Assembly: GCA_051008975.1 (NCBI GenBank)
Contig: JBPCXA010000217.1
Location: forward strand, 1-40,926
Length of the DNA stretch: 40,926 nt
Direction of reading: 5' to 3'
Source of the DNA: Gammaproteobacteria bacterium
GTDB lineage: Bacteria > Pseudomonadota > Gammaproteobacteria > Tethybacterales > Persebacteraceae
Every line of letters begins with the position of its first letter. Within the stretch, counting starts at the first letter, position 1. Under the pieces are notes generated by a model. That model searched no databases, was not told where the DNA came from, and worked only from the letters and a program-made list of their open reading frames with translations. Below are positions 1 through 40,926 of the stretch, piece after piece. Both the position numbers and the translations under genes were made by a program.

Positions 1-127
1 ACTTGCAGATGTTGTGGGCTCGCACCCCGAAACGACGTAGCCGTTAATTGCATCAGACCACCAAGCGCCTCGCTCCCTCGCCTCTGAGCCAAGGCTGTGC
101 GTATTAGCGCCTAATGCAACCGATGCG
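1..127. repeat. Terminal direct repeat, left copy (circular-contig overlap)
   Basis: 1-127 is identical to 40800-40926, and a reading frame continues uninterrupted across the join. Confidence 0.95.
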
Positions 128-180
128 CTAACGAATATGCTGAATACGGCTAAAATGCAGCTGAACATGAATTGTCCCAT
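1..180 (-). CDS. 5' part of the origin-spanning tail spike gene (continues into 40799..38952), with N-terminal signal peptide
   Basis: Manual translation from ATG 180 (or 168): MGQFMFSCILAVFSIFVSASVALGANTHSLGSEARERGAWWSDAING...; open and in frame with ORF 38952..40652. Confidence 0.8.
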   Translation of the reverse strand, partial: MGQFMFSCILAVFSIFVSASVALGANTHSLGSEARERGAWWSDAINGYVVSGCEPTTSAS

Positions 181-13394: not shown

Positions 13395-14186
13395 TTATTT
13401 TGCACAAATAATGCATGGCCTCGAATCATAACGTTCCCTTAGATCAAATTCATAATCAGGGAACATTTGTACTTGTCGCTCATAATCATCCAGCATTCTC
13501 TGAAGCGGTTTTCGGCTCAGTGACCATGTCGTTCCGTGGCCATCCTTGCTCGTTTCTTCTGCCTTCTTCTCTTCTGCCAGTGCTTGCGCGAATAACTCAG
13601 GCTCATGGCGCGAAAGCCCTAGCCATTCCGATTCCCTTTGCCAAGGACACATCCAACACCCACCTGTAGTCCGCCACGCATAAAATTTCGGAAGTTTGAT
13701 CTGCGATTCAGACAGAATATTCATCACCCCATTTAAATCAATGCAAGCTTCTCGCAAGGGGTAGGCATAATCAATGCCCTTTGAGATACCATAATTTCCC
13801 TCACGCTCTGGTTCATCAGCGCGTAGTCCAATATAAACTGTACAAGGCAAACCCTGTTTGCAATATCGCTCAATGGGCCTCAATTTCAAATGCTTTGTGC
13901 ACCATCTACTCTGCTTCCCTGGTAAAAACCATCCCCAGTGCTCTAGGTAAAAATCAAAGGTCCGACCATAATCCGTAAGACGAGAAATAGGAGACTCTAA
14001 GACATCTTCTAAATCATCCAGAAATCTGTAAAGGTCTGGAAATTCTCTGCCCGTGTCACAAAAAACATACTCTATCTGAATCTCTGGAAATGCCTGGCGC
14101 ATATACAAAGCCAGCGCTGTGCTGTCCTTTCCGCCAGATAGTGAAATAATGTGACGCATTGTGTTAGACTTGGCTGACATGCTCAT
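13395..14186 (-). CDS. Phosphoadenosine phosphosulfate (PAPS) reductase family protein (CysH/DndC-like)
   Basis: PP-loop SGGKDS, FCDTGREF, RWCT.HLK, GLRADE, GCWMCP, C-terminal CIIC. Confidence 0.85.
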   Translation of the reverse strand: MSMSAKSNTMRHIISLSGGKDSTALALYMRQAFPEIQIEYVFCDTGREFPDLYRFLDDLEDVLESPISRLTDYGRTFDFYLEHWGWFLPGKQSRWCTKHLKLRPIERYCKQGLPCTVYIGLRADEPEREGNYGISKGIDYAYPLREACIDLNGVMNILSESQIKLPKFYAWRTTGGCWMCPWQRESEWLGLSRHEPELFAQALAEEKKAEETSKDGHGTTWSLSRKPLQRMLDDYERQVQMFPDYEFDLRERYDSRPCIICAK

Positions 14187-14425: not shown

Positions 14426-14709
14426 TCGCCAGGCTTGACTGTGGCAGGTTGGGCACGCTGCTTGTCCGTTGCTGTCATCTGATCCTGCTTCTGCTGCAAA
14501 GCGAATAGCTGGCGCCTCGTCGCTTCGATCTCTTCGTAGCGGAGGACGGCCGCGACGTCTACCACCTTCTGGCAACTCAGGCATTGATGTCCCCTTGGAG
14601 GATAGACCGTTCCTCCTCCCGTATTGAACCTGATGGCTACCACGGCGATGAATAAAGTCCCTTGGCACTCAGGGCACGCCAGGTCTTTCTGCTCACGGAG
14701 TTCAGCCAT
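14422..14709 (-). CDS. Zinc-ribbon protein
   Basis: CPEC...CLSC. Confidence 0.6.
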   Translation of the reverse strand: MAELREQKDLACPECQGTLFIAVVAIRFNTGGGTVYPPRGHQCLSCQKVVDVAAVLRYEEIEATRRQLFALQQKQDQMTATDKQRAQPATVKPGE

Positions 14710-15703
14710 GTGCCATCTCCACTAAGTCGTGCTCATGCCAGTCTTGATGATTCGCCGTCCACAGTACAGTCTCTTGAAATCCCTCATCAAATGACATCAT
14801 TGGGCGCCAGTCCAACCCTTGCAGCTTGCTGTTATCCATCATGTATCGCTTGTCATGACCTGGGCGCCCAGGAGTGAGAATGTAATCACAAGATTTAATG
14901 AGTCGTCCATCCCGTTGTAATTCATACTCTATTTGCATGAATATTCTTTGATCCGTATGCTCTTCATCTGCTCCAAGATTGTAACTTTCACCGGGTTTTC
15001 CACGCTGCAACAAACACTCAACAGCACGGGCATGATCGCTCACATGCAGCCAATCTCTCGCGCCCTGACCATCATTGTACACGGTTACAGATTCGCCACG
15101 CAGCATCTGACCGACAAACTTGGGGATCACCTTCTCAGGATGCTGCCCCGGGCCGTAGGTATTGCATGGGCGCACGATCACAATCGGCATGTCGTGGGTC
15201 ACATAAAAGCTGTTAGCCACAGCTTCGACTCCGACCTTGCTGGCACTATAGGCATTGCTCGGGTTGAACGGCGTGTATTCGTCGAACTTTTCGCCATAGG
15301 GGGTAGAGCCAAACACCTCATCAGTCGAGTAAACGAGAATCTTTTTTGGCATGCCGCCACTATGATCCCACCAAGATTGATATATCGCCTGCAATAGCCG
15401 CGTCGTACCCAGCACGTTACTTACGATAAATTGATCTGGTGCGCTGACGGCACGGTCCACATGGGTCTCTGCCGCCATATGTACTACCCAATCGGGGTTC
15501 CACGCTGCACAACGTGCTGCCAAATCTCCAGTACTCAGATCGCCTATGAGGATATGAACTTTGTCTAAAACATCAGCAAGATTGCGACCTTTGCCGGCGT
15601 ACGTGAAGCGATCCGCCACGCACACCTCATGTCCCTGCGCCACCATATGCTTGGTGACGTACGAGCCGATAAAGCCTGCACCACCAGTAACCAATACTCT
15701 CAT
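14702..15703 (-). CDS. rmlB: dTDP-glucose 4,6-dehydratase (NDP-sugar dehydratase)
   Basis: VLVTGGAGFIGS, D.FTYAG, HMAAETHVDR, STDEVFG, YSASK, NTYGPGQHPEK.IP, RDWLHV.DH, RPGHD.RY. Confidence 0.92.
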   Translation of the reverse strand: MRVLVTGGAGFIGSYVTKHMVAQGHEVCVADRFTYAGKGRNLADVLDKVHILIGDLSTGDLAARCAAWNPDWVVHMAAETHVDRAVSAPDQFIVSNVLGTTRLLQAIYQSWWDHSGGMPKKILVYSTDEVFGSTPYGEKFDEYTPFNPSNAYSASKVGVEAVANSFYVTHDMPIVIVRPCNTYGPGQHPEKVIPKFVGQMLRGESVTVYNDGQGARDWLHVSDHARAVECLLQRGKPGESYNLGADEEHTDQRIFMQIEYELQRDGRLIKSCDYILTPGRPGHDKRYMMDNSKLQGLDWRPMMSFDEGFQETVLWTANHQDWHEHDLVEMAHG

Positions 15704-20484: not shown

Positions 20485-21021
20485 TTAAATATCAGAATTC
20501 ATCTTGCCACTTTCAACAATCTTAACGGTAGCCTCACTTGCAAGAGCTCGCTTTAGCATTCGCACCTCAAGATTGTGCTTGGGATTAAACTCTCGCTCAT
20601 GGATAAGCCATGGCTTGGGTAGATAAATGCCATAAAGTGGGTAGTCTGGATCGAAATATTCCAGTGTCGACTCATTCCACGGGTTGCAGTGTGTCGGATC
20701 CTGGTAATACCCATGACTCCCAGCATAGGGGACGATAATGTAGAGCTGTCCCTCAGGCTTCATAATTCGCCACAATTCGTTCATGATGTCCAGTGAGAGC
20801 CACGGCTTGATGTGCTCTAGTATGTGCGAAGCGAGGATGATATGAGCACATTCATCTGGAAGCGGATAGGGAAAGACCTCAAGATCGTGAATGATGTCGA
20901 CGCCACTGAGTGGGCGCTTGTCAATGCCTATCCAACCTTCATTCTTTGAGCCACCGCAACCGATATCGAGCATGATACCGTTGCCATCGTCAACAACTTT
21001 TTTGGCTTTGAACCATCTCAT
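20485..21021 (-). CDS. Class I SAM-dependent methyltransferase
   Basis: LDIGCGG motif I, SHILEH, ELWRIMKPEG, DPTH. Confidence 0.85.
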   Translation of the reverse strand: MRWFKAKKVVDDGNGIMLDIGCGGSKNEGWIGIDKRPLSGVDIIHDLEVFPYPLPDECAHIILASHILEHIKPWLSLDIMNELWRIMKPEGQLYIIVPYAGSHGYYQDPTHCNPWNESTLEYFDPDYPLYGIYLPKPWLIHEREFNPKHNLEVRMLKRALASEATVKIVESGKMNSDI

Positions 21022-22814
21022 CTCAGTGTTCCACCCGACAGGCTTACCCCGCTCATTGCGCTTCCTACAGCAACAGCCTCTTGTCTCAGCGGATGAGGGT
21101 ACGCAATTTCAGTATATCCGGATAGAAACGTTGAGACCCACGGACAGGTGTCATCTGCGCAGTGTGTCCAATCCCTATCCTGCTGAAAATAAGGCCCTAT
21201 TTCGGTGTCAATGCAAAAATCACCGGTTGGTTGGAGTGTACCACCGCAATCTGCCTCTGTCGCATCTGTGTTATTCCACCACCGCATCGGGGTTACAGCC
21301 TGAGGGCGCCGGTTGTCATCCCCAATGCCTGGACTTGATGAGGCGAATCCATGGCCATCAATACACGGGTAGCCATTGGAGATTTTATACCCCTCGCTTG
21401 CATCGAATGCGCCATTACCAGAGCAAGAGGGGCCAAGGGCCGCGAAGGTCAACGTGGTCGCCGTGTTACTCGTGACCTGCGATATACAGTCGACTGAGCC
21501 AGTCCCTTCAGCGTCTTCCTCACTGGTGTTGTGGACATAGTCGTCTACCCACTCATTGGTCGTCCATGACTTAGAGGTATCAGCCAGGGTGGTTGAGGAG
21601 CCGCTTGTCGCAGTCCCTGAGGCTGTCGCATCAATTGCACCATTTCCGTCAACGAAGCTGTTCCCGATGCACCCGTTCCATAACCCACCCTCTGCTGGAT
21701 CACCTGGGCGAAACCCCCATACACGAGCAGCTGCTCGATGACGATTCCCCGCTGTCGCGCCCACATTGAATGAGTTATTCCATACCCAATAGGAGCCGCC
21801 CCTGAATGAGGTAATATTGCGAGAGAAATCACCACGTGAGACAACATTATCATGGATGATCATAGCACGTCCAGAGCGAGACTCAGAGCCTCTAGCCCCG
21901 TGCATGCTCCATCCACCTACTTCGATGTGGTTGTGCCTCCAAATACCCTTGCCACCCTTGCGGACATCTACAAGGAATGCATTCCCAAGGCAACTCGTCT
22001 CGCCTTCGTCGTAGTCAAATGTGTTGTCCTCAAAGACTACCCAAGTATTTGCTACACCGCCTAGATCAAGCGGGTCTGCCCAGCTAATGTCACCGGACCA
22101 GCCACCACCCGGTGAAGTGAAGAAGTCATTGCATTTTTGCACTTGAGCCATGAATGCGTTGTCTCCATCTCCTACGCATTCCAGACTATGAAACCAATTG
22201 TTATCAAAGACTCCTGACGCATTGTCGTGATTTGCGTCGGCCATAACAAAGCCTGAGGTATTCACAGCGATATCGTCGTAGTAGTTATTGTTGTCTATGC
22301 GAAACTGAGCGAAGTTCTGGAATGCCGTAAGTGTATGTACCGCAGGGCCGCCCTCGTCATCTGGTCCACAGTTGTAGTTTTGCTCAGTGAATCCGGTGAA
22401 TCGTATGCCAGTTATGCGGGCATGCCCAACCGGAGTTGGAGAGCTCGGGACTTTGATAACCAAGCTTGGCTCAGTAGCTGTATTCTCCTTGTTGAGGGTT
22501 GTAGGCCAAGTACCGGTGGGCGCTCCATTGTCACCGCAATCCGTGCAGTTACCACCACCACTAATCGTAATTGTTTTGGTGATCACGGCAGCCGTGTTGA
22601 ATGTATGCGTGCCTGTCGCGATCGTGATCGTATCACCAGCGACGGTGCCGGCGTCGTCAATGAGTGTTTGCAGACCGGCTGGGGTGCAGGAATCGTTCAC
22701 TCCATTTGTTCCGCACGTTGAGTCGGCCGAGAAAGCCCAATCGACCGAAAACAAAAGCATGGCAAGGGCGAATATCCACCAAACAATAGCACTAAATATC
22801 GATATCGCTTTCAT
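21018..22814 (-). CDS. Secreted beta-helix-like (pectin-lyase-fold) adhesin/depolymerase
   Basis: Likely start MKAISIFSAIVWWIFALAMLLFSVDWAFSA (signal peptide); AGDTITIATGTH, repeated IDNN/FDNN/FEDNTF/WNNSF rungs, paired Cys, C-terminal YPHPL. Confidence 0.7.
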   Translation of the reverse strand: MKAISIFSAIVWWIFALAMLLFSVDWAFSADSTCGTNGVNDSCTPAGLQTLIDDAGTVAGDTITIATGTHTFNTAAVITKTITISGGGNCTDCGDNGAPTGTWPTTLNKENTATEPSLVIKVPSSPTPVGHARITGIRFTGFTEQNYNCGPDDEGGPAVHTLTAFQNFAQFRIDNNNYYDDIAVNTSGFVMADANHDNASGVFDNNWFHSLECVGDGDNAFMAQVQKCNDFFTSPGGGWSGDISWADPLDLGGVANTWVVFEDNTFDYDEGETSCLGNAFLVDVRKGGKGIWRHNHIEVGGWSMHGARGSESRSGRAMIIHDNVVSRGDFSRNITSFRGGSYWVWNNSFNVGATAGNRHRAAARVWGFRPGDPAEGGLWNGCIGNSFVDGNGAIDATASGTATSGSSTTLADTSKSWTTNEWVDDYVHNTSEEDAEGTGSVDCISQVTSNTATTLTFAALGPSCSGNGAFDASEGYKISNGYPCIDGHGFASSSPGIGDDNRRPQAVTPMRWWNNTDATEADCGGTLQPTGDFCIDTEIGPYFQQDRDWTHCADDTCPWVSTFLSGYTEIAYPHPLRQEAVAVGSAMSGVSLSGGTLR

Positions 22815-22815
22815 C

Positions 22816-23550
22816 TCATTGCACCATGATGACTCTACGTGCTGCCGGAGCCGCGCCCGCTTCAAATAATTGAACTGCAATATGCCCGATATCGATTGCT
22901 GCACTAGCAGTCCATGACATCGTTGTCGTGCCGGCAGCTCCCACTTCATCACTACCTTTTTGCGAATCATCAGAGCCGCCATTATTCAGATGAATACGTT
23001 CCGTCTGACCTGCTCCAGGCGTCAAAGTAGTTGTGCCATCATGGAAATAATGGATGACGTCGACTGCCCAGTCGCCTAATGATGTTGTCACATCGATAGA
23101 CGTAGACGTTCCTGCATCTACAGAATTCGTTCCTGATGCTCCACATGGATCAGTCTGATTTGCACCTGTGTATGACATCGCTACTGAGAATAGCGAATTT
23201 GAGCTTGTAGAGGATACGACAACATCACTGGCACCTGTTGACGGATTGGCTAGACAGAAGAGCGTGAGGCGAGTAGCGAATCCATCAGCATCCCATGTTA
23301 GAGTTGCCTCTTGTGTCATGCTGACTGCGTCATAAGTGACGGTGGGCACATCTGGGAAAGTCGCACCGGAAATATATCCGCCAACACCGACAATTAGTGC
23401 TCGATCAGTACCTGTTGTCGTATGAGAATATGTTAGCGATGTAACGGCTGAACCATCAAAATCTGATGAGGCTGCATCGAACGCAATAACTGCAAAGGCA
23501 TGAGGAGAAGCCAGGCATATAAAAACGACCGCAATCAGCAATCTACGCAT
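22816..23550 (-). CDS. Secreted Ser/Thr-rich beta-sandwich, virion-appendage-like protein
   Basis: Signal peptide MRRLLIAVVFICLASPHAFA; IAFDAAS...SLTYSHT...RALIVGV...VTYDAVSMT; C-terminal RRVIMVQ. Confidence 0.7.
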   Translation of the reverse strand: MRRLLIAVVFICLASPHAFAVIAFDAASSDFDGSAVTSLTYSHTTTGTDRALIVGVGGYISGATFPDVPTVTYDAVSMTQEATLTWDADGFATRLTLFCLANPSTGASDVVVSSTSSNSLFSVAMSYTGANQTDPCGASGTNSVDAGTSTSIDVTTSLGDWAVDVIHYFHDGTTTLTPGAGQTERIHLNNGGSDDSQKGSDEVGAAGTTTMSWTASAAIDIGHIAVQLFEAGAAPAARRVIMVQ

Positions 23551-23552
23551 GG

Positions 23553-26500
23553 CTACTGCCTATCCACTGTGAAAGTGAAGCAGATCGTGTACTCATCCGT
23601 TTCAGGCGAAACCGCGTTATCCACATCGAACCGGAGCCCCTCACCAGCCACTAAGGAATTCGCAGCCGTCACAGCCTGATACGTGCTATTTCCAGTGCCG
23701 GTACTACACGTCGGCGCTGTATGGGTCATCGCATTTCCAGCGCGATCCTCAAGAGACAAAGAGGCTCCTGTCGTGCAAGTCCCTCGGCAGTGGCATCCAA
23801 TACCAGTGATCGTGATCGGATCGTTGGCCATGAAGATTTCGAAGTCATCGTCGGCGGCAGCCAGGTCCTCGATCACTGCGCACTTCTGACGCTCATATGC
23901 CAAGACTCGTGGCGTTGCTCCATAGATGAGTTGATCATCGGTAGTGTCTTGTGAAATTTCGCCGGCTGCATCTACTGTAGGAGCTGCTCCATTAGGAATC
24001 TCAAGACTACCGGCTGCACCGAAGTCGTGTGCTCCCGTATAAGCATCCCCGTCAGCCTCTGCCAGATCAGTGACGTCAGTAAGCTGCGCCTCAACCTCTG
24101 CTTTTGTATCAACCTCACTAGTAGCGCCGCCACTTATTGCTATCAGTCCTGTAAAAGCGCTTACATCTGCCTCAAGACCGCCATTCTCATGAAGTAGGAC
24201 TGGCGACCCACCCGTGGTAAAGATTGTTGACGCCACTGCTTGATTGGATGTGTTGCCGAGGAAGACAGCTCCATCGTCAAGATTCGGAGTGGCATTGTTG
24301 CGACCTGCACCTACCACTGCCAATTGCCCCGTTGCAGCATTCACTCGGATCACGGTGGCGACTCGCTGAAGAAGACCTGCCTCTCCAGTGGGAATAACAT
24401 TTGTCATGTTCTCGCCGCAGTCCGCTGAAGCACTTGTCCCGGACGTGTTGATATAGATGCCATCACCAACAGTCCATGATTCTGTCGTTGCCGTATCAAC
24501 AGAATCCACGATGCCACCCGTGATAACCAATCCAGATGCGCCATTAGCAATAGACGCCTGAGTAATACCAATCGCTGGCATTGCTCCAGAGTTATCGGCG
24601 TCAGCAATAGAAACCTCAGGAAGATCACTCGGGATATCGAATCCCGAGATATAGACCGCTGTACACTCCTCGATCGTTACCCCTGAATCGTTGAATACCG
24701 ATTCCAGGGTTGTTGTCGATTCGCTCACTCCATCGACAGCAACAGAAAGTGAATCTCCAGATTCAATCGTGATGGCATTGCAGTCACCAGTGGCACAGTC
24801 AAACACGTCTGTAATATCACCTGAAGTTGCTGCAATTGCAGAGGGAGCTCCACTATTAACGTTGCAAAATTCGAATTGGTTGTCAGTCGTATCGTACCAC
24901 CACAGACCCTGATCGCCAACGCAGGAATCATCGTCAACCAAAATAGTGTTTCTCGTAACTTGCCCACTGATGATGGGAGACGTGAGCGTCTTGTTTGTGA
25001 GTGTCTGAGTATTCGTCGTGCCAACGACGGCACCAGTTGCGCCATGCTCGGTAGTACCTGCAATGTGAGAATCGATCTGAGCATGAGTATTGGTGCCGAT
25101 ATCAGTGAGGTCGGTATGGCTACGGTTGGTGATCTGCGTGAGGTTGGTCAGCGTGATCGTATCCGGTATGTCTCCGTCTACAAGCGTAACCATGCACGAC
25201 TGTGGGATGAGTGACCCTGCCGTGATTGTACAGAGCACCTGTGCATCACCAGTCAAGCCACCTACGTCTGCAATCTTGAATCCCCAGGTGGCCGTGCCAT
25301 CATCTGCGCCTTCGCTCAAAAGGAGAGAGCCACCATTCGTAGCATTCGCAGTTGATCCAATCGTACCAGTGGCATTAACCGTCCCATCCGCATCGACTGA
25401 AAATACCTCAGTGTCTGCGTCGTCTTGTACGATCAAAATGGAGTCTGTTTGGGTCGAGAATCCCTCAATTACAAGTTGCGGCTGGTCAGCGTCACCACCA
25501 ATTTCCATCTTTCCAGCAAGCGTCCCTGCGCCATCACCCACATGCACATCCTTGGTAATGGTATTCTGCACGATAGGATCACCGGCATCAGAAAATGCAC
25601 CAGAGCCAGCGCCTGTATCATCTGTGCCGTCAGCAAACCCTCCCGGGACACCAACAAGTTGCGACCATTCCACCTTGCCATCGGCAGCATTTGGGCCACT
25701 GCCATTCACATCATCTAATTCAGAGACGGCCGAATCAAGATCAGTGGCGACGAAATTAGAATCTGGATCATCAAAACTCACTAAGTCGCCATCTTTGGTC
25801 TCTGAATCACGATGGATAGTGGCATCTATCCTCGCATCCTCAAGCGCCCCCATTATAAAGAAAGCAGTCGCAGAATCACCAGTCAATGCAGCACCCGCCT
25901 CAGCATCCCCAGCCGCGTAGTTTCCCGTGGTATCTGTCGTGAGTGCAACCGAATCAGTGACCACCGTATTGGCTTGAATTGTGCCCCCGCCAGCCCCTGA
26001 AATAGCACCAGCCTCCGTAATCTGTAAATGGGCACCAGAAGTGTTTCCAACGAGCGTTACCGTGTTCCCCGCCCCATCAGTCTCGAATCGCAAGAAGTCG
26101 GCTTCAGGGTCTGATCCGGAATCAAGCGCTATGGCGCCAGTGCAGTCATTTACGGTTCCACAATTGACCCGCATTGACATTTCTACTGCGCCAGTATCGT
26201 CAGTATCGTCTAGGGCGAGAGTGGGAGCTGTGGAAGAGACCGTCACGCTGGGAGAGTTGATTGTAATGCTATCCGGCACCTGAGCATCCGTGACAGCACC
26301 TTGCAGGTCTTGGAGGTCAATCACGGCCTCTAGCACTGACTCTGCCCCTGCTGCCACAAAGTCGACCGTAATGGTGTCAGTACCTGCATCCCCAGTCACC
26401 GTCACTGCTGCACTTGGAGCTAACCAGCTGAGTGTATCAGCGGCATTATCAGCCACTGGGCTTGTGCCAGCAGGAGTTGATTGAGTCTCGAAGCTATTCG

Positions 26501-27041
26501 CGGAGCCGCCCCCGGGAATATCACAATCTGTTGCATCATTCCCAGCATCGTCCGTACAGGTTACGCCTACGCCAGTGAAGTTTAAGTTCGTACGAGCTGT
26601 TAGCCCAACCCCCTCATCCTGGATCGTATGACCACCCACCCCACCCGTTTGGTCAGTGATACAAGCGAATATCGTTCCGTCAAAGTCAAGCTTTTCTGTT
26701 GTGTCATCGCAATTAGGGACGGTGATGCCGACAGCATCACCTGTAAGCGTGATGGGCGACGTAGTAGAGAGGTTGGTGTCGTCAGAAATGTCTATGCCGG
26801 ATAGGGATGTCCCAGTGTGGCTGTGGGAATCGTTGACAACAGTGCATGCTGGAAATGTACCTCCTAGGTCTCCTGAGCAAGCCTCGCCATCCAAGACGGC
26901 TTCACCCCATCCAGCATTCCAATCTGCACCCGTAATTTTGCCACCCGCACCTGAACAACTAGGCCAAGTGCATGGCTGGGCATGAGCATTTGCAGACATC
27001 AGAAACACGACAAATGCGCCGAAGGCGGCATATCGAATCAT
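23553..27041 (-). CDS. Large secreted tail-fibre-like protein (1162 aa)
   Basis: Signal peptide [21 protein letters not shown]; fibre motifs ([24 protein letters not shown]); cement-like domain (VYISG...ADADN..MPAIG); many short Cys pairs. Confidence 0.75.
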
Positions 27042-27043
27042 CG

Positions 27044-27310
27044 CTAGTCCCGCTCATTGAGAAGGTTACGCATGTCTTTTAGTTGCCCGTCAATCCGTGC
27101 CAGAGCCCTCTCCATACGGTACTGAGCATTCGCAACACCTACCCGAAAGTAGGCAAGAGCCCCCGCACCAAGTATCTCTGCCAATGCCTGAGTATTGCCA
27201 GCATCAAATGATCCCTCACCGGGAGCAAACTCAAAAAGATCAAGCAGCCCATGAAGCATACCCAATCCACAGAGAATATATGTCCGTTTTCCTCTAATTT
27301 TCACGGGCAT
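27044..27310 (-). CDS. Holin-like membrane protein
   Basis: Two hydrophobic segments; GKRTYIL...LAYFR.GV pattern; charged C-terminus. Confidence 0.55.
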
Positions 27311-27332
27311 TCCTTCGTGATCGAATCATTGG

Positions 27333-27491
27333 CTAAACGTTTTCCTTGGTGCCGAAGTAGTACCCCAAAATGATCAGAGTCAGCTCCTTGACATCCTGGG
27401 GCGCTTGACCACCAGAGTAGACCTGCCAACCAAAATAACCAACAACAGCTACAGCAATCAGTCGCCTAGTCCACAAACCAAAATCGCTCAT
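27333..27491 (-). CDS. Small 2-TM holin-like protein (52 aa)
   Basis: MSDFGLWTRRLIAVAVVGYFGW...LTLIILGYYFGTKENV; not in the ORF track. Confidence 0.55.
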   Translation of the reverse strand: MSDFGLWTRRLIAVAVVGYFGWQVYSGGQAPQDVKELTLIILGYYFGTKENV

Positions 27492-27691
27492 CATGGCACT
27501 GGGGGCGGCTGAGCAGGCGGTGGGGCAACCGCATTTTCGAGCTCGTCAAGTGCCTTGCGATGTTCAGACCCAAGGTTCTCGATCTCGACCGGATCATCCA
27601 TGTTGTCAACGGCATCCTGGACTTGGTCTAAAGCCGCACGAATCAGCCTCAATGTCTTGCTAAGGTCAGCCATTTTCTTTTCTCCTGCCAC
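27491..27691 (-). CDS. Small helical protein with Pro-rich tail
   Basis: 66-aa ORF in the membrane-gene cluster. Confidence 0.55.
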   Translation of the reverse strand: MAGEKKMADLSKTLRLIRAALDQVQDAVDNMDDPVEIENLGSEHRKALDELENAVAPPPAQPPPVP

Positions 27692-27703
27692 TCCTGCAGT
27701 GGC

Positions 27704-28096
27704 CTATTTGGTATGCCTGAGGACGAACCCTTGAGCAACACTCACAGCGTGAGAAAGCTCCTGAATGGCCACTTGGTATGCCGTATTGCTCGGATCATCT
27801 TGCCGCTTAATAGCCCGGACAAGCGCATCTCGTGCGGCGTCCAATGCAGCCTGCACATCTGGCCCAATGACGTTCTGATACTCCTCCTTGACAGACACAG
27901 AGATATCACCAGCCTCAAAGCCTACTTTGATGAAGCGCACCAAGACGGCCGCAGAATTGTCGAAAGTGTCAATCACCTGAGCAGCCGTGGCAAGCCCAGG
28001 ATCAGAGATGGCAACGCCTTGATGAGTCACAGGAGCCTTGCAAGCAGCGAGCATTAAAAAGGCGACGACGATAGACACATTTCTAACTTTTTTCAT
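27704..28096 (-). CDS. Lipoprotein (possible spanin component)
   Basis: MKK + hydrophobic stretch + lipobox LAAC; GGAAGGA RBS. Confidence 0.75.
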   Translation of the reverse strand: MKKVRNVSIVVAFLMLAACKAPVTHQGVAISDPGLATAAQVIDTFDNSAAVLVRFIKVGFEAGDISVSVKEEYQNVIGPDVQAALDAARDALVRAIKRQDDPSNTAYQVAIQELSHAVSVAQGFVLRHTK

Positions 28097-28106
28097 GATT
28101 CCTTCC

Positions 28107-28400
28107 TTATTTGCCGCTGGAATGAGATGTTGGTGTGCCTCTTGACTGTTCTCTACGCGATGACATCTGCACTAGCAACCGTTGCAACTCGTCGATTTTG
28201 GCATCTAGGCGATCGATGTGCCGCTCTAGGCGATCAACGTGCTTGCTCCAATTTTCCCGCAGCATGGCTCCAGGGTGTGGCTGCGCGGAATGCTGGCGGA
28301 GCGTGAATGCACCGACAGCACCACTTAGTAAGACAATGGCCATCATAGTGCCAAAAAACGATTTGTATGTGAGATAAGTGGAATCTGTTGTTGATTTCAT
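28107..28400 (-). CDS. Single-TM coiled-coil protein, first gene of the late operon
   Basis: Likely start MKST at 28400; TM segment then (DRLERHI)-type heptads. Confidence 0.6.
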   Translation of the reverse strand: MKSTTDSTYLTYKSFFGTMMAIVLLSGAVGAFTLRQHSAQPHPGAMLRENWSKHVDRLERHIDRLDAKIDELQRLLVQMSSRREQSRGTPTSHSSGK

Positions 28401-28411
28401 TTCACGCTCAC

Positions 28412-28500
28412 ACCGGGGATAGTCAGTAACTATCCCCGGTATACAGGGAGCTCGGCTAGGTTCGCCGCGTATCCGGGTCAAATCGAGTACGCCCTAGCCT
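28412..28500 (-). promoter_or_regulatory. Structured 5' leader of the late operon
   Basis: GGCTAGG/CCTAGCC stem enclosing GCGTA/TACGC, followed by the perfect 12-bp hairpin ACCGGGGATAGT/ACTATCCCCGGT (28412-28440). Confidence 0.6.
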
Positions 28501-28506
28501 AACTAG

Positions 28507-28535
28507 ATCGTACAAGCACGAGAGGTATTTGTCAA
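28507..28535 (-). promoter_or_regulatory. Sigma70-type leftward promoter of the late operon
   Basis: TTGACA-17 nt-TACGAT. Confidence 0.75.
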
Positions 28536-28595: not shown

Positions 28596-28624
28596 TTGAC
28601 ATTCTACCGCTATAGTAGTATATT
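28596..28624 (+). promoter_or_regulatory. Sigma70-type rightward promoter
   Basis: TTGACA-17 nt-TATATT. Confidence 0.8.
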
Positions 28625-30406: not shown

Positions 30407-30721
30407 TTATCTTTCACGATGAAATTTCTGATAATCTCGCCACCCAGACGTGACTAGATCACTGCTTTTTAGCTTGCGCTTAAATATTTCTCTAAACGAT
30501 TCGCAAGTAATTTCATCGCAAAAACAATAACATGCATCGTTAAAAGCCACCCAATCATCACCCACGGCAATACACCACGGCACGACTTGCCCACCCTTAG
30601 GAATGCAGGCCACACGATGATCGTCAACAAGCAAAACCTCAATACTTTCAGCAGAGTGTCGAAGCCCTTGACCCGGCGTTAGTGATAAAACACTCGCTAA
30701 CATGATCGCTGCGTATATCAT
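30407..30721 (-). CDS. Small Cys-containing protein with hydrophobic N-terminus (possible signal peptide)
   Basis: MIYAAIMLASVLSL; AGGAG RBS. Confidence 0.55.
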   Translation of the reverse strand: MIYAAIMLASVLSLTPGQGLRHSAESIEVLLVDDHRVACIPKGGQVVPWCIAVGDDWVAFNDACYCFCDEITCESFREIFKRKLKSSDLVTSGWRDYQKFHRER

Positions 30722-38618: not shown

Positions 38619-38992
38619 TGCGCATGACTGAGAAACAGTACGCCGCGCACCTCAAGCAGCAACGACAACCGCGACAGAATGAGGGCAAGACGAGAACAAG
38701 TCGGGAGGATATATTAGATGCGCTCGGGAAGCGGCTACAGACCGAGTATGGCGATGCGTTTGAAAGGGTAGGATACCGTTTCTGGAACGATGAAGCTTGT
38801 GTTTACATCACAATTGACGACTGGCTATGTTGGAGCAATAATGACGAGGATGGTCACATATATACGCCATGGCGAAGAATCCCATTTACCAGTGATGGGC
38901 TCCAGAACAAAGGGGCCATTGATAAGGCCATGGCAAGAATCATATCCACGATCACTGCGGCAACATCTCCAAAAAATAAGCCCGGCTTCTAA
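38618..38992 (+). CDS. Hypothetical protein, last gene of the rightward early operon
   Basis: 124 aa; 3' end overlaps the convergent tail spike gene by 41 nt. Confidence 0.6.
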   Translation: MRMTEKQYAAHLKQQRQPRQNEGKTRTSREDILDALGKRLQTEYGDAFERVGYRFWNDEACVYITIDDWLCWSNNDEDGHIYTPWRRIPFTSDGLQNKGAIDKAMARIISTITAATSPKNKPGF

Positions 38993-40926
38993 GCGATATC
39001 GTCGCAGCAGCGGTGTTGTGTTGTACTGTCACCGTAATATCGCCAGAAGTAGTTGTGGTAGCTACGCCTATGGAGCCTACTCCTGCAAGCCTTGTTACGG
39101 CTGAGGCTAAACCGCCCAAGCCGCCTGGGCCAGACATTTCAAACGTGCCAAATGTCGTGACGGTGGTTTGATTGTTTGGATCGCCGGAAACACGCATCGA
39201 TAATATCCAGCTGCGTTGGGTCGGGCTCGTCGTGATTGATGCAAAAGGGAAATTCCCAATAGTCGTTCCCTTATACCTCACTCGCAACGTAACAGTCTCA
39301 TTTATACCGCTGTTGTTTGTATACTCTCCTGCGACTTCTAATTTTACGCCACTCGGGCCATCAATAGCATTCCCTGGAATCGTTGTGGTAATGATAGTTG
39401 TTTCTACTGCTGTGTTAGAAACAATAGCACTGGGGATGACACTATGATCTGCAAGTTGAACAGAAGTATCTCCAGTACGAGTGATCGTTACTCCTGCTCC
39501 AGGCCTTCCAGCATAATCAGTTGTTGTGAATAAGATATTGTTTGGGCCAAGCTGAGTATCAGAAACTGCTCCAGATGTGAAATCCACAGCGGTTGCATAG
39601 CCAGAAATCGCATTGGAATGGACTGAATTACCCACCAGCCCATTAGACAGTTTGACAGCAATATTTGTCCCACTTCCACCGAAAGAATTTCCAACAATAG
39701 AAACTCCTCCACCGAGCCCAGGAGTCACACTATCCAAGTCGATTGTCGCGGGTGATGAATCCTCAAAGTAATTTCCGCCTATAAACCATCCAATGGGAGT
39801 TCTGCCTCGAATAGAGCCAAGCGCGTTTCCTTCAATATCGCTACCAGTAATCGATACAGCGCGAGTTTGTGCCGTAGCATTAATTCCCCATCCGAGATTA
39901 CCCTGAATGCGTGATTGATCAATGGACACTTGGTTTAAGTTCTGACTTAAACCATCCATTTTTATGCCATCACCCACGTTTGCCTGCACATAGAGATTCG
40001 AAAATCTCAGAACAAGAGAGATGCCTCCAGTCGCCAAATCGTCAATCAGTATACCTGCTGTCGTATGTCCGGTTGCACCTACCCCGCCCGTCGCTCTCCC
40101 CGCAACTCGGACATTCTGCACATCGATATCTGCTGCACCAAAGATGTGCAGACCTGTGGCGCCAGTTGTTGAACGAATCGCGAGATTACGGATGGTTACC
40201 GTAAAATTGAAATCGCCTGGCGACGTGCCGCCATCAATTAAAACCCCATCGCCTGAACCTGTGTAACGAAGGATCGTGCCGGCAGTTTCGATGACTACAG
40301 AACCATGACTGCATCCTTCAAGAATTTGGCCTCTGTTTAGCGAGAGTGTTGTTGCAAACCTGATCACACCGCAAGGAAGAGTAATGTGTTCCGTGGAATC
40401 TAATGCAAGCTGAAGAGCGGCCGAATTGTCAGTCAAGTCGTCGGCTACAACGCCGAATTCAGCAGCAAAACGGCCTGAGGCAACCGTGTTAGAAGGAATG
40501 CTTCTTACTGGTGCTATAAGCGATACCGCTGTAATTGCCCCGCCACTTACCGTAACTTCAGAAAAGACAAGCCCCCCAGAAGGGTTGGCCGGCTGTGTAA
40601 CGTTCATCTGCCAAAGATAATGAGTGGCCCCGTGCCTAGTCCATCCAGACACGGCAGATACTCGCTCTCTATGCAGGGCCAGCCAGTAGGTGCCATCTCC
40701 GCCACTAAGAGGGCCAACAACGCTTGACGGTTGAATCGTATAGATGATTTCGCCTGAATCTTCTAGATACCCCTCACAAGCAAAAGCAGTGACCGTTGTA
40801 CTTGCAGATGTTGTGGGCTCGCACCCCGAAACGACGTAGCCGTTAATTGCATCAGACCACCAAGCGCCTCGCTCCCTCGCCTCTGAGCCAAGGCTGTGCG
40901 TATTAGCGCCTAATGCAACCGATGCG
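38952..40926 (-). CDS. Tail spike / depolymerase with pectate-lyase-like beta-helix (true start at 168/180 across the contig join; ~671-675 aa)
   Basis: AAEFGVVADDLTDNSAALQLALD...LPCG (pectate lyase superfamily N-terminal motif) and beta-helix rungs (IEGN, IGGNYFE, IVGNSF); frame is open from 40652 to the contig end. Confidence 0.8.
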   Translation of the reverse strand, partial: ASVALGANTHSLGSEARERGAWWSDAINGYVVSGCEPTTSASTTVTAFACEGYLEDSGEIIYTIQPSSVVGPLSGGDGTYWLALHRERVSAVSGWTRHGATHYLWQMNVTQPANPSGGLVFSEVTVSGGAITAVSLIAPVRSIPSNTVASGRFAAEFGVVADDLTDNSAALQLALDSTEHITLPCGVIRFATTLSLNRGQILEGCSHGSVVIETAGTILRYTGSGDGVLIDGGTSPGDFNFTVTIRNLAIRSTTGATGLHIFGAADIDVQNVRVAGRATGGVGATGHTTAGILIDDLATGGISLVLRFSNLYVQANVGDGIKMDGLSQNLNQVSIDQSRIQGNLGWGINATAQTRAVSITGSDIEGNALGSIRGRTPIGWFIGGNYFEDSSPATIDLDSVTPGLGGGVSIVGNSFGGSGTNIAVKLSNGLVGNSVHSNAISGYATAVDFTSGAVSDTQLGPNNILFTTTDYAGRPGAGVTITRTGDTSVQLADHSVIPSAIVSNTAVETTIITTTIPGNAIDGPSGVKLEVAGEYTNNSGINETVTLRVRYKGTTIGNFPFASITTSPTQRSWILSMRVSGDPNNQTTVTTFGTFEMSGPGGLGGLASAVTRLAGVGSIGVATTTTSGDITVTVQHNTAAATISLRSRAYFLEMLPQ
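40800..40926. repeat. Terminal direct repeat, right copy
   Basis: Identical to 1-127. Confidence 0.95.

Follow-up and report, generated by a model that had tools for sequence, protein, structure and literature searches.

Sec-like signal peptides on receptor-binding-type proteins of a P22-like podophage genome

To our knowledge, the particles of tailed phages are built entirely in the cytoplasm, and we know of no P22-like tailspike or tail fiber that carries a signal peptide or folds outside this compartment. Some phage proteins do use the host Sec pathway, including the lambda proteins Lom and Bor, spanins, signal-arrest-release (SAR) endolysins, and the coat proteins of filamentous phages, and late operons encode some of these. 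Filamentous phages, which are viruses of another kind, build their particles out of coat proteins that have been exported, and extrude them through the envelope. Here we describe a stretch of DNA of 40,926 nucleotides (hereafter the window), which is the entire contig C217 (JBPCXA010000217.1) of a 2.35-Mb metagenome-assembled genome (MAG; assembly GCA_051008975.1) and is treated as the complete genome of a P22-like podophage. All four fiber- or spike-type proteins recognized in this genome, termed P1, P2, P3, and TS (a tailspike), carry a signal-like N-terminus.

Two bacterial systems are comparable. In the accessible part of the report that describes them, the MAT fibers of Bdellovibrio bacteriovorus are signal-bearing, mosaic, tail-fiber-like trimers with diverse tips that are exported in a diderm cell (PMC10769870). 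According to the same portion, all 21 MATs share a β-rich domain of ~130 amino acids (aa) behind the signal, and an S74 chaperone-protease forms the C-terminal end of 13 of them (PMC10769870). The Pantoea stewartii protein WceF, as far as the accessible text of its report goes, is an exported, Tat (twin-arginine translocation)-dependent, tailspike-like trimeric β-helix that cuts the exopolysaccharide of its own producer (PMC7949094). A full-text literature search, with subscription journals mostly outside its reach, found no paper on Sec signals in tailed-phage fibers or spikes; in the papers on phiCbK and Atu_ph07, signal peptides occur only in the methods or references.

An initial annotation of the window had pointed to signal peptides on P1, P2, and P3, and had proposed that these proteins are exported, folded oxidatively in the periplasm, and then either added to virions or displayed on the infected cell as adhesins. 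The observation of the signal peptides is real and is stronger than first stated. The best explanation overall, which we rate at about an even chance, is that four receptor-binding-type proteins have acquired cleavable Sec-type signals, fold in the periplasm, and are added to the particles at lysis. Export and cleavage of P1, P2, P3, and TS, taken by themselves, are quite probable on comparison of start codons, graft points, family signals, and Cys pairs; the same comparisons do not tell addition to virions from display as adhesins.

Signal-like N-termini of four phage proteins

The genes of the four proteins and the segments that encode their predicted signal peptides are located as follows.

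23553..27041, minus strand: P1, 1162-aa putative mosaic tail-fiber protein, predicted N-terminal signal peptide, 24 Cys
26979..27041, minus strand: predicted P1 signal peptide, residues 1–21 (MIR, a 12-residue core, and SANAHA, followed by QPC)
22816..23550, minus strand: P2, 244-aa predicted β-sandwich with putative signal peptide; phrog_553 match
23491..23550, minus strand: predicted P2 signal peptide, residues 1–20 (MRR, LLIAVVFICLA, and SPHAFA, followed by VIAFDA)
21018..22814, minus strand: P3, 598-aa predicted right-handed β-helix with putative signal peptide and 16 Cys; ATG at 22814
22728..22814, minus strand: predicted P3 signal peptide, residues 1–29, followed by the family motif ADSTCGTNGVNDSC, placed by family comparison
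38952..40926, minus strand: tailspike TS (671 aa), main body; the gene crosses the circular junction
1..168, minus strand: TS N-terminus, MFSCILAVFSIFVSASVALGA, followed by NTHSLGS; contiguous with the main body thanks to the 127-nt repeat

P1, P2, and P3 each start with an n-h-c signal peptide, in the open reading frames (ORFs) and at the positions where the initial annotation had placed them; TS is a fourth signal-bearing gene, outside the region that it covered. Signal peptides were called with a crude home-made rule, fixed across all sets, that also picks up membrane proteins. P1, P2, and P3 pass this rule. In seven control phage loci fetched via their TerL, it is passed by 1 of 47 ORFs of at least 200 aa and by 7 of 124 ORFs of all lengths, and it is passed by none of the 13 ORFs of at least 200 aa in the sister contig C145. 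No protein with a hydrophobic N-terminus was seen when the N-termini of the structural and packaging module (128–20475) were read by eye. Family searches and reading of N-termini recognized no signal-less fiber- or spike-like protein elsewhere in the genome.

The n-regions of P1 (MIR), P2 (MRR), and P3 (MK) are charged, and the hydrophobic cores span 12 residues in P1, 11 in P2, and ~15 in TS. The predicted cleavage sites (↓) are AHA↓Q in P1, AFA↓V in P2, AFS↓A in P3, and LGA↓N in TS, all with small residues at positions −1 and −3 and a polar start of the mature protein. The Arg pair of P2 (MRRLLI) was considered as a possible Tat motif; this signal is only 20 residues long, and its core is very hydrophobic (mean Kyte-Doolittle value of 3.6 over 10 residues). 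P1, P3, and TS have no RR pair.

The start codons of P2 and TS are particularly constrained. P2 can start only at residue 1 (ATG) or residue 4 (TTG), and therefore the hydrophobic segment is part of the protein (MRRLLIAVVFICLASPHAFA↓VIAFDA); the conserved domain begins at residue 22. No canonical start of TS is present between position 40652 and the extended coordinate 40967, which corresponds to the ATG at window positions 166–168. Given also that TS residues 22–671 are homologous to the tailspike of C145 (57% identity), the hydrophobic N-terminus of TS must be translated. The C145 tailspike starts with MPNTHGLSS at the point where TS reads LGA↓NTH, and it has a Shine-Dalgarno (SD)-like motif and an in-frame stop 13 codons upstream. 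Signal-less homologs of both P2 and TS begin exactly at the predicted cleavage sites. Judged from the available start codons, the predicted signals are obligatory in P2 and TS, and alignment with these homologs shows the putative signals to be grafted onto normally signal-less families.

For P1 and P3, SD-like motifs precede the upstream starts, and the downstream candidates have none. The upstream ATG of P1 lies 2 nt past the preceding stop, with the SD-like sequence GGGAC 5 nt before it, and the same arrangement of GGGAC is found 5 nt upstream of the TS ATG. The alternative P1 starts are at residue 12 (GTG) and residue 15 (ATG, preceded by a T-rich stretch), and neither has an SD-like motif; nor does the GTG at residue 196, where the gene call in the public collection starts. 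The public calls shorten P1 to 967 aa and P3 to 580 aa (from M19), and the P1 call is too short because homologs align from residue 41.

P3 (MKAISIFSAIVWWIFALAMLLFSVDWAFS↓ADSTCGT) could start at residue 1, 19, 21, or 39, and the family motif begins at about residue 30. A start at M19 would leave a hydrophobic stub of five residues. The alignment of ADSTCGT with the family sequence A-T-Y-T-C-G-T favors cleavage after AFS over cleavage after FSA. A 654-aa version of P3, corresponding to the stop-to-stop frame, was rejected; it would overlap P2 by 167 nt.

Families, folds, and cysteine content

P2 is, on these comparisons, a rare member of an ordinary phage tail family to bear a predicted signal, which stands precisely ahead of the domain. 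Residues 22–230 match phrog_553 (“minor tail protein”) at 3.9e-13, and there is no Pfam match. A tblastn search with P2 against 50,697 phage records gave no match. The AlphaFold2 (AF2) model is all-β with a predicted local distance difference test (pLDDT) value of 79.6, and the signal and the last eight residues are of low confidence. In BFVD, a database of predicted viral structures, this model has 60 matches at E ≤ 1e-3 with template modeling (TM) scores of up to 0.78, and many Mycobacterium phage minor tail proteins are among them. Against the PDB, Foldseek found nothing at E ≤ 1e-3, and VIA-align (best Z 5.6) gave a generic jelly-roll likeness that was not used to name the family.

The relatives of P2 indicate where the signal was added. 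Five of eight database homologs start with M-(A/S)-(I/L) at P2 residue 21/22; of the other three, two bear their own signals and the third carries a long extension. A scan of IMG/VR with the P2-family profile yielded 115 relatives, the best 80 of which were fetched. Sixty-three of these 80 start directly at the domain (M-A↓IAFDA), that is, at the P2 cleavage site; in seven of the 63, the reading frame stays open for more than 40 codons upstream, and these domains may be embedded. A signal is present in three of the 80 by rule and in a fourth (L053) by eye, and 14 are embedded or other. Two of the relatives (L024 and L035) are identical in sequence. The initial annotation would have counted a general lack of signal peptides among homologs against export, and the homologs of P2 do generally lack them. 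This outcome does not refute export: P2 offers no other start codon, and its cleavage site is the very point at which the signal-less relatives begin.

In a scan of ten longer proteins that start with the P2 domain, three had Laminin_G_3 and one had a SASA esterase. These partners are lectin-like and a carbohydrate esterase, respectively, and therefore the P2 domain heads glycan-directed phage proteins. The C-termini of the P2 family often consist of a short basic-then-hydrophobic strand (RRVIMVQ, NFLMFM, QPIIFP; window 22819–22839 in P2). The two C-terminal strings for which the initial annotation had suggested a docking function (RRVIMVQ in P2 and SGVSLSGGTLR in P3) are present in the sequence, and the C-terminal tails of P2 and P3 are of low confidence in the monomer models.

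Two parts of P1 are shared with other proteins in a way that is informative about its type.

24249..24812, minus strand: P1 residues 744–931, shared module that matches annotated tail-fiber-like proteins and fibritin
23556..24071, minus strand: P1 C-terminal tip, residues ~991–1162, with six Cys; C-terminal in 12 database proteins

The identification of P1 as a mosaic tail fiber is supported by the composition of its homologs. These span residues 41–1162 as shuffled modules, and the modules are common to 50 large database proteins at 40–88% identity, 35 of which pass the crude signal rule. P1 has no Pfam or PHROG match, PDB sequences gave nothing at E ≤ 1, and as a single protein it has no relative in IMG/VR. 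In a tblastn search, residues 744–931 matched 14 phage records with 29–38% identity and E-values down to 2e-13, from Synechococcus and Flavobacterium phages and two Caudoviricetes sp.; 12 of the 14 are annotated as tail-fiber-like or fibritin. A “cement-like domain” that had been assigned to P1 could not be verified, since no family matches and the likeness is only to tail-fiber and fibritin proteins. A cultured Flavobacterium phage has a fiber with the 744–931 module and without a signal. This phage was rejected as a culture model, its fiber being signal-less.

The P1 tip is found in seven contigs of IMG/VR, and a search of 185,579 species genomes added a single contig. The Atlas clusters nearest to the tip are viral, which is a lead only. 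The tip is predicted to trimerize: The homotrimer model scored 0.93, on a score whose calibration (20 of 30 solved pairs vs. 1 of 23 single chains) holds only roughly for this domain, and the best of three controls scored 0.00. The trimer runs agree in at least 94% of contacts, and partner pLDDT is at least 91.

Many relatives of the tip are also preceded by signal-like sequences. Nine of the 12 tip-bearing database proteins pass the crude rule, and a signal-like N-terminus is present on the fiber in all six viral contigs that hold a complete tip-bearing fiber (L009–L014). In these six contigs, 30 of 111 ORFs are signal-like, or 21 of 62 among those of at least 200 aa, and the fibers lie among further signal-like genes within structural modules (portal, head, tail-fiber, and virion-protein genes). 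Besides the tip, the tip-bearing viral contigs have essentially only one head-protein match and one neighboring-gene match in common with the window or with one another. The deposited complete genome of an uncultured phage (L103; MW202637.1, 32751–43083) has a run of five small signal- or lipoprotein-like proteins, all annotated as hypothetical. One protein of MW202637.1 combines a signal with the P1 module HTIQDEG...RTNLNF.

P3 is a β-helix protein, as the initial annotation had supposed; both the AF2 model and a profile match to polysaccharide lyase family 6 (PL6) bear this out. The model (pLDDT 82.4, predicted TM score 0.85) is a β-helix of stacked short strands with one long N-terminal helix at residues 3–23. 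The profile of the P3 family finds PL6 alginate lyases at 5.4e-12, and the matching part is the noncatalytic C-terminal β-helix domain of two-domain lyases (chain residues 436–583). Foldseek gave weak matches to PL6 lyases and chondroitinase B (E 2e-4 to 2e-2, TM ~0.28) and also to tailspikes, and Pfam gave only a subthreshold YDG match. A HMMER scan found 228 relatives of P3, 44 at E ≤ 1e-10 and 7 at E ≤ 1e-30. The subfamily motif CGTNGV(D/N)NSC comes right behind the N-terminal region, 24–59 residues from the N-terminus, and the signal rule is passed by all but one of the 21 subfamily members (20 of 21). The one that fails, P0081, has its start within the hydrophobic core, apparently through the kind of gene-calling error that also affects P3.

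Two further features of P3 were observed. A repeat of ~60 residues (GTATSGSSTTLADTSKSWTTNEW...VTSNTATTLTF) lies at residues ~395–470 (window ~21405–21630) and recurs in three to seven tandem copies in many proteins of 550–950 aa that have no signal peptide. One mostly viral cluster, with Kelch_1 in 36% of its members, is among the results of the Atlas structure search. In addition, many P3-family matches end with P-x-x-N-L-R-(V/I), which we read as the beginning of a fibronectin-type-III domain or as such a domain cut short; the P3 C-terminus is at window 21021–21053.

The identification of P1–P3 as fiber or adhesin proteins is thereby supported in each case: tail-fiber modules and a modeled trimer for P1, the minor-tail family and fold for P2, and the β-helix for P3. 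TS contains a Pect-lyase_RHGA_epim domain (3.6e-9, 37.2 bits, cut-off 27). As a single protein it has no relative in IMG/VR, and tblastn against the 50,697 phage records gave no match. TS is the last gene of the structural module, and the gene order is the same in C145.

The Cys content of the proteins is unusual for this genome. P1 and P3 consist of 2.1% and 2.7% Cys, respectively, compared with 0.78% in the other late proteins (55 of 7035 residues), and the large virion proteins of the phage have 0–2 Cys each. The numbers of Cys residues in the mature proteins are all even (24 in P1, 2 in P2, 16 in P3, and 4 in TS). All Cys motifs quoted in the initial annotation are present in P1 (CTWPSC 24–29, CGTVNDC 294–300, CATGDC 749–754) and P3 (CTDC 90–93, CADDTC 552–557), and so are the N-terminal strings and the tail-fiber motif that it gave. 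In alignments of the P3 family, Cys residues are conserved as partners: 34/43 in 12 of 12 rows, both members of 90/93 in 9 of 12, both members of 552/557 in 7 of 10, and 382 with 484 in 10 of 11 and 9 of 10, respectively. The six Cys of the P1 tip fall into classes conserved in 10/10, 10/9, and 7/7 of 13 rows. A close pair in TS, C49/C64, is missing from the signal-less C145 tailspike, and the isolated C312 and C381 of the latter have no counterpart in TS. The two mature Cys of P2 are missing from all eight aligned homologs. Even, paired Cys residues are the pattern expected of folding in an oxidizing compartment, and are suggestive of it here.

Operon and genome context

P1, P2, and P3 are flanked by the following features.

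28107..28481, minus strand: small protein in which a single hydrophobic helix is joined to a coiled-coil tail; first operon gene, with weak family matches only (E ≥ 0.004)
27704..28096, minus strand: predicted 130-aa lipoprotein (MKKVRNVSIVVAFLMLAAC, putative lipobox LAAC); no family match
27044..27310, minus strand: 88-aa small protein with two weakly hydrophobic segments, adjoining P1 upstream; no family match
20485..21021, minus strand: methyltransferase gene (PF08241 8.1e-5, phrog_6636 2.7e-8), followed by TerS and TerL
28507..28535, minus strand: sigma-70-like promoter candidate, with a divergent partner at 28596–28624 on the plus strand

The initial annotation had placed the trio at the head of the late operon. 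The genes are indeed near its head, but four small genes precede them, the third being that of a 66-aa coiled-coil protein with a proline-rich end. The one-helix protein is possibly spanin- or holin-like, and the reading of LAAC as a lipobox in the 130-aa protein is our own judgment. Together, the four small genes (27044–28481, minus strand) may make up a lysis set of the spanin or holin type. Family searches recognized no endolysin anywhere in the genome.

The genes are tightly packed. The stop-to-start gaps are 2 nt between the preceding gene and P1, 2 nt between P1 and P2, and 1 nt between P2 and P3, and the ATG of the methyltransferase gene overlaps the P3 stop (ATGA). The guanine-plus-cytosine (GC) content of the P1–P3 genes is 0.51–0.53, and the phage average is 0.513. 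No strong promoter or terminator flanks P1–P3. The two promoter candidates stand back to back in the only sizeable intergenic gap and match the consensus at 10 and 11 of 12 positions; the seven sigma-70-like sites of the region, compared with a shuffled expectation of 9.4, are not above chance. An independently expressed “moron” cassette was considered for P1–P3 and rejected because the coupling is tight and the composition uniform. In the early region, a 104-aa protein (30407–30721, minus strand) has six Cys, and its N-terminus (MIYAAIMLASVLS...) is hydrophobic and signal-like; this phage protein, too, may be exported.

The window carries an exact direct repeat of 127 nt at both contig ends (1–127 and 40800–40926), and is therefore a circularly assembled element of ~40.8 kb. 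Family searches revealed a podophage layout with small and large terminase, major head protein, and internal virion protein. The portal is P22-like by a subthreshold match, and the head module also holds a scaffold-sized protein. RecT-like, replication-initiation, and repressor-like regulator families are present as well; no integrase was recognized in these searches, and no tRNA is present in the window. A PAPS-reductase-like gene (13395–14186, minus strand; phrog_424, 1.4e-50) and a nucleotide-sugar epimerase gene (14702–15703, minus strand; phrog_540, 1.5e-85) lie inside the head module, between the portal and scaffold genes, and may have DNA- or glycan-modification functions. A DNA search with 21018–27041 found no match in the 50,697 phage records. 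TerL relatives are distant (33–38% identity in IMG/VR, 37–38% in species genomes), and two of the IMG/VR loci that were read, L002 and L003, have no comparable genes upstream of terminase.

The phage contig was probably binned into the MAG by accident because its composition deviates from that of the MAG (GC 51.3% vs. 59.6%; tetranucleotide correlation with the rest of the MAG 0.22). The MAG was also rejected as the phage host. There are no short exact spacer-like matches between phage and MAG, and the rest of the MAG contains no second copy of P3 and, for P1, one weak match only (53 aa on C34). Of the other MAG contigs that reach 20 kb, 27 in number, five more are compositional outliers with the lowest tetranucleotide correlations, 0.30–0.72 (C145, C39, C77, C25, and C144); outside these five, the values listed are 0.92–0.998. 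C145 is a related phage, and C77 and C144 have 127-nt terminal repeats as well. Signal-like ORFs account for 16 of the 27 in C39 (26.6 kb), and for 12 of the 17 that are at least 200 aa long.

Possible fate of the proteins after predicted export, and comparison with known systems

If the four proteins are exported, then their path to the virion could be as follows. The late operon would yield P1–P3 and TS together with the terminase and head genes. The proteins would cross the inner membrane and lose their signals through cleavage at AHA↓Q, AFA↓V, AFS↓A, and LGA↓N. They would fold and trimerize in the oxidizing periplasm, where their paired Cys would presumably form disulfides. When the inner membrane is breached at lysis, the proteins would meet DNA-filled, spike-less particles and attach to them as the last assembly step, and excess protein would be released as free glycan-binding or glycan-cutting protein. 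Attachment to the virion and a free secreted role are not mutually exclusive.

The step from export to the virion is plausible. P22 tailspikes and T4 fibers are the last parts to be added, and finished particles can take them up in vitro; attachment after the breach of the inner membrane is therefore physically plausible. TS is the only recognizable receptor-binding protein of the tail module and is syntenic with an ordinary tailspike, P2 belongs to a tail-protein family, and the signal-bearing fibers of L009–L014 are located where tail fibers sit. We judge attachment after export to be nearly an even matter, leaning slightly toward the negative. More tentatively, and with the balance of our judgment against it, this phage might represent an undescribed, recurrent class of tailed phages that complete virion assembly outside the cytoplasm by repeated grafting of signals onto receptor-binding proteins. 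The grafting events of such a class would include the four genes described here, at least six unrelated tip-bearing contigs, 3–4 of the 80 P2-family loci, and MW202637.

Several observations weigh against export followed by attachment. Most P2-family members (63 of 80) and the C145 tailspike are signal-less, and cytoplasmic folding is therefore the norm in these families. The signal rule also passes 175 of 1109 ORFs of the bacterial contigs of the MAG, which is expected of a rule that picks up membrane proteins. Among the signals themselves, the n-region of TS (MFS) has no positive charge and is a weaker fit to a Sec signal, and its coding sequence overlaps the last 14 codons of gene 128–610 in another frame. 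The h-region of P3, at 22 residues, is unusually long and sufficient for a membrane anchor, and a start of P1 at M15, possible in principle, would make the protein signal-less. The genes of P1–P3 precede those of the terminase and stand apart from the tail genes. No tail-attachment domain was recognized in P1 or P3 with Pfam and PHROG, or in P1 with PDB sequences. The full-text literature search also revealed no documented tailed phage that adds exported proteins to its particles, and we infer the diderm envelope of the host from the putative lipoprotein gene.

The kinship of P3 points in the same direction. Its Atlas neighbors are bacterial (Verrucomicrobiota, Acidobacteriota), which is a weak lead, and a search of IMG/VR with one peptide pattern only, of low sensitivity, found no member of the P3 subfamily. 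With bacterial relatives and no viral ones found, P3 may be a captured secreted enzyme of bacterial type, and its kinship appears to fit such an acquired enzyme better than a part of the virion.

These points lead to an alternative that we consider rather unlikely, namely that the proteins are an exported toolkit separate from the virion and consisting of a β-helix depolymerase or lyase, a lectin-like module, and a fiber adhesin. Such proteins could act from the periplasm on the envelope polysaccharides of the infected cell itself, removing receptors and blocking superinfection, or, after lysis, on the surrounding matrix and neighboring cells, and the virion would use other, unrecognized attachment proteins. 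The position of P1–P3 between small envelope-protein genes and terminase, rather than in the tail module, would be natural for such a set. The same is true of the P3 family, which is large, signal-bearing, and apparently mostly bacterial and whose profile matches polysaccharide lyases, and of the lack of any recognized virion-attachment domain in P1 or P3. As far as the accessible parts of the reports go, WceF (PMC7949094) and the MAT fibers (PMC10769870) are bacterial precedents. However, this alternative does not readily accommodate TS, which bears a signal and yet is the syntenic homolog of an ordinary tailspike and the only recognizable receptor-binding protein at that place. It is also at odds with the annotation of the P2 family and fold as minor tail protein in many cultured phages, and with the location of the L009–L014 fibers inside structural modules, next to head, portal, and tail-fiber genes. 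Moreover, the genes are translationally coupled to packaging genes, with no sign of an independent cassette.

It is improbable that the N-termini are instead uncleaved signal-anchors that hold the fiber and spike proteins at the inner membrane up to lysis, for instance so as to keep depolymerases off cytoplasmic precursors or to concentrate the proteins where particles exit. The h-region of P3 has the length of a membrane helix and is modeled as one (residues 3–23), the n-region of TS is uncharged, and the operon also encodes small membrane-anchored proteins. However, all four N-termini have the small −1/−3 residues and polar mature start of a cleavage site, signal-less relatives start exactly at these sites, and the h-regions of P1 and P2 (11–12 residues) are too short to span a membrane. 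The conserved motif of the P3 subfamily, likewise, comes after typical AxA sites. Finally, that there is no export, the hydrophobic N-termini being an artifact of start choice or chance on proteins that fold in the cytoplasm, is very improbable: It would agree with the public gene calls for P1 (residue 196) and P3 (M19) and with the in-frame ATG at P1 residue 15, but the 967-aa call is contradicted by homologs that align from residue 41, P2 and TS have no alternative start, SD-like motifs stand only at the upstream starts, and signal-like N-termini occur in four of four fiber or spike genes, in none of the module at 128–20475, and again with such genes in unrelated contigs.

If export with subsequent attachment is true for these proteins, then the last assembly step would take place in the periplasm or the lysate, which would be a new branch of the tailed-phage assembly pathway. 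There is a reasonable chance that phage receptor-binding proteins routed through Sec, as they are predicted to be here, point to such a new route. Fibers and depolymerases stabilized by disulfides would provide glycan binders and enzymes of very high stability, and metagenomic receptor-binding proteins of this kind would have to be expressed in the periplasm in order to fold. Before burst, an infected cell might rid itself of its own receptors by shedding or destroying them. The graft points also offer a natural experiment in which a cytoplasmic protein family adapts to an oxidizing compartment; TS, with a close Cys pair gained and two lone Cys lost, would be an example. Gene callers that trim such N-termini mis-annotate the genes, as happened to P1 and P3 in the public collection.

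Among systems that are already described, the lambda proteins Lom and Bor, spanins, and SAR endolysins differ from P1–P3 and TS in that they are lysis or lysogenic-conversion proteins and not members of fiber or spike families. The MAT fibers, compared by description only and from the accessible part of their report, are like P1 in having a signal peptide, a tail-fiber-like mosaic structure, and a trimeric form, predicted in the case of P1. In contrast, they are chromosomal genes of a predatory bacterium and P1 is encoded by a phage, and P1, which has no Pfam match, has no Peptidase_S74 domain. WceF, as described in the accessible text, and the PL6 lyases are exported β-helix polysaccharide enzymes, a type that P3 and TS may resemble, and the profile match of P3 extends this likeness. 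However, the signal of WceF is of the Tat type and its gene belongs to a biosynthesis operon of the host, whereas the signals of P3 and TS are Sec-like and their genes are late genes of a phage.

The structural proteins of other phages are also comparable. The P2 model superposes on actinobacteriophage minor tail proteins (phrog_553 and phrog_2106) with TM scores of 0.63–0.72; unlike most of its viral relatives, P2 carries a putative signal, and its two mature Cys have no counterpart in the aligned database homologs. TS shares with P22-like tailspikes and fibers a pectate-lyase-like β-helix and the last position in the structural module, and is 57% identical to the signal-less C145 tailspike. 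In contrast to those systems, every fiber or spike gene in this genome bears a predicted signal, and the proteins are Cys-rich with paired Cys.

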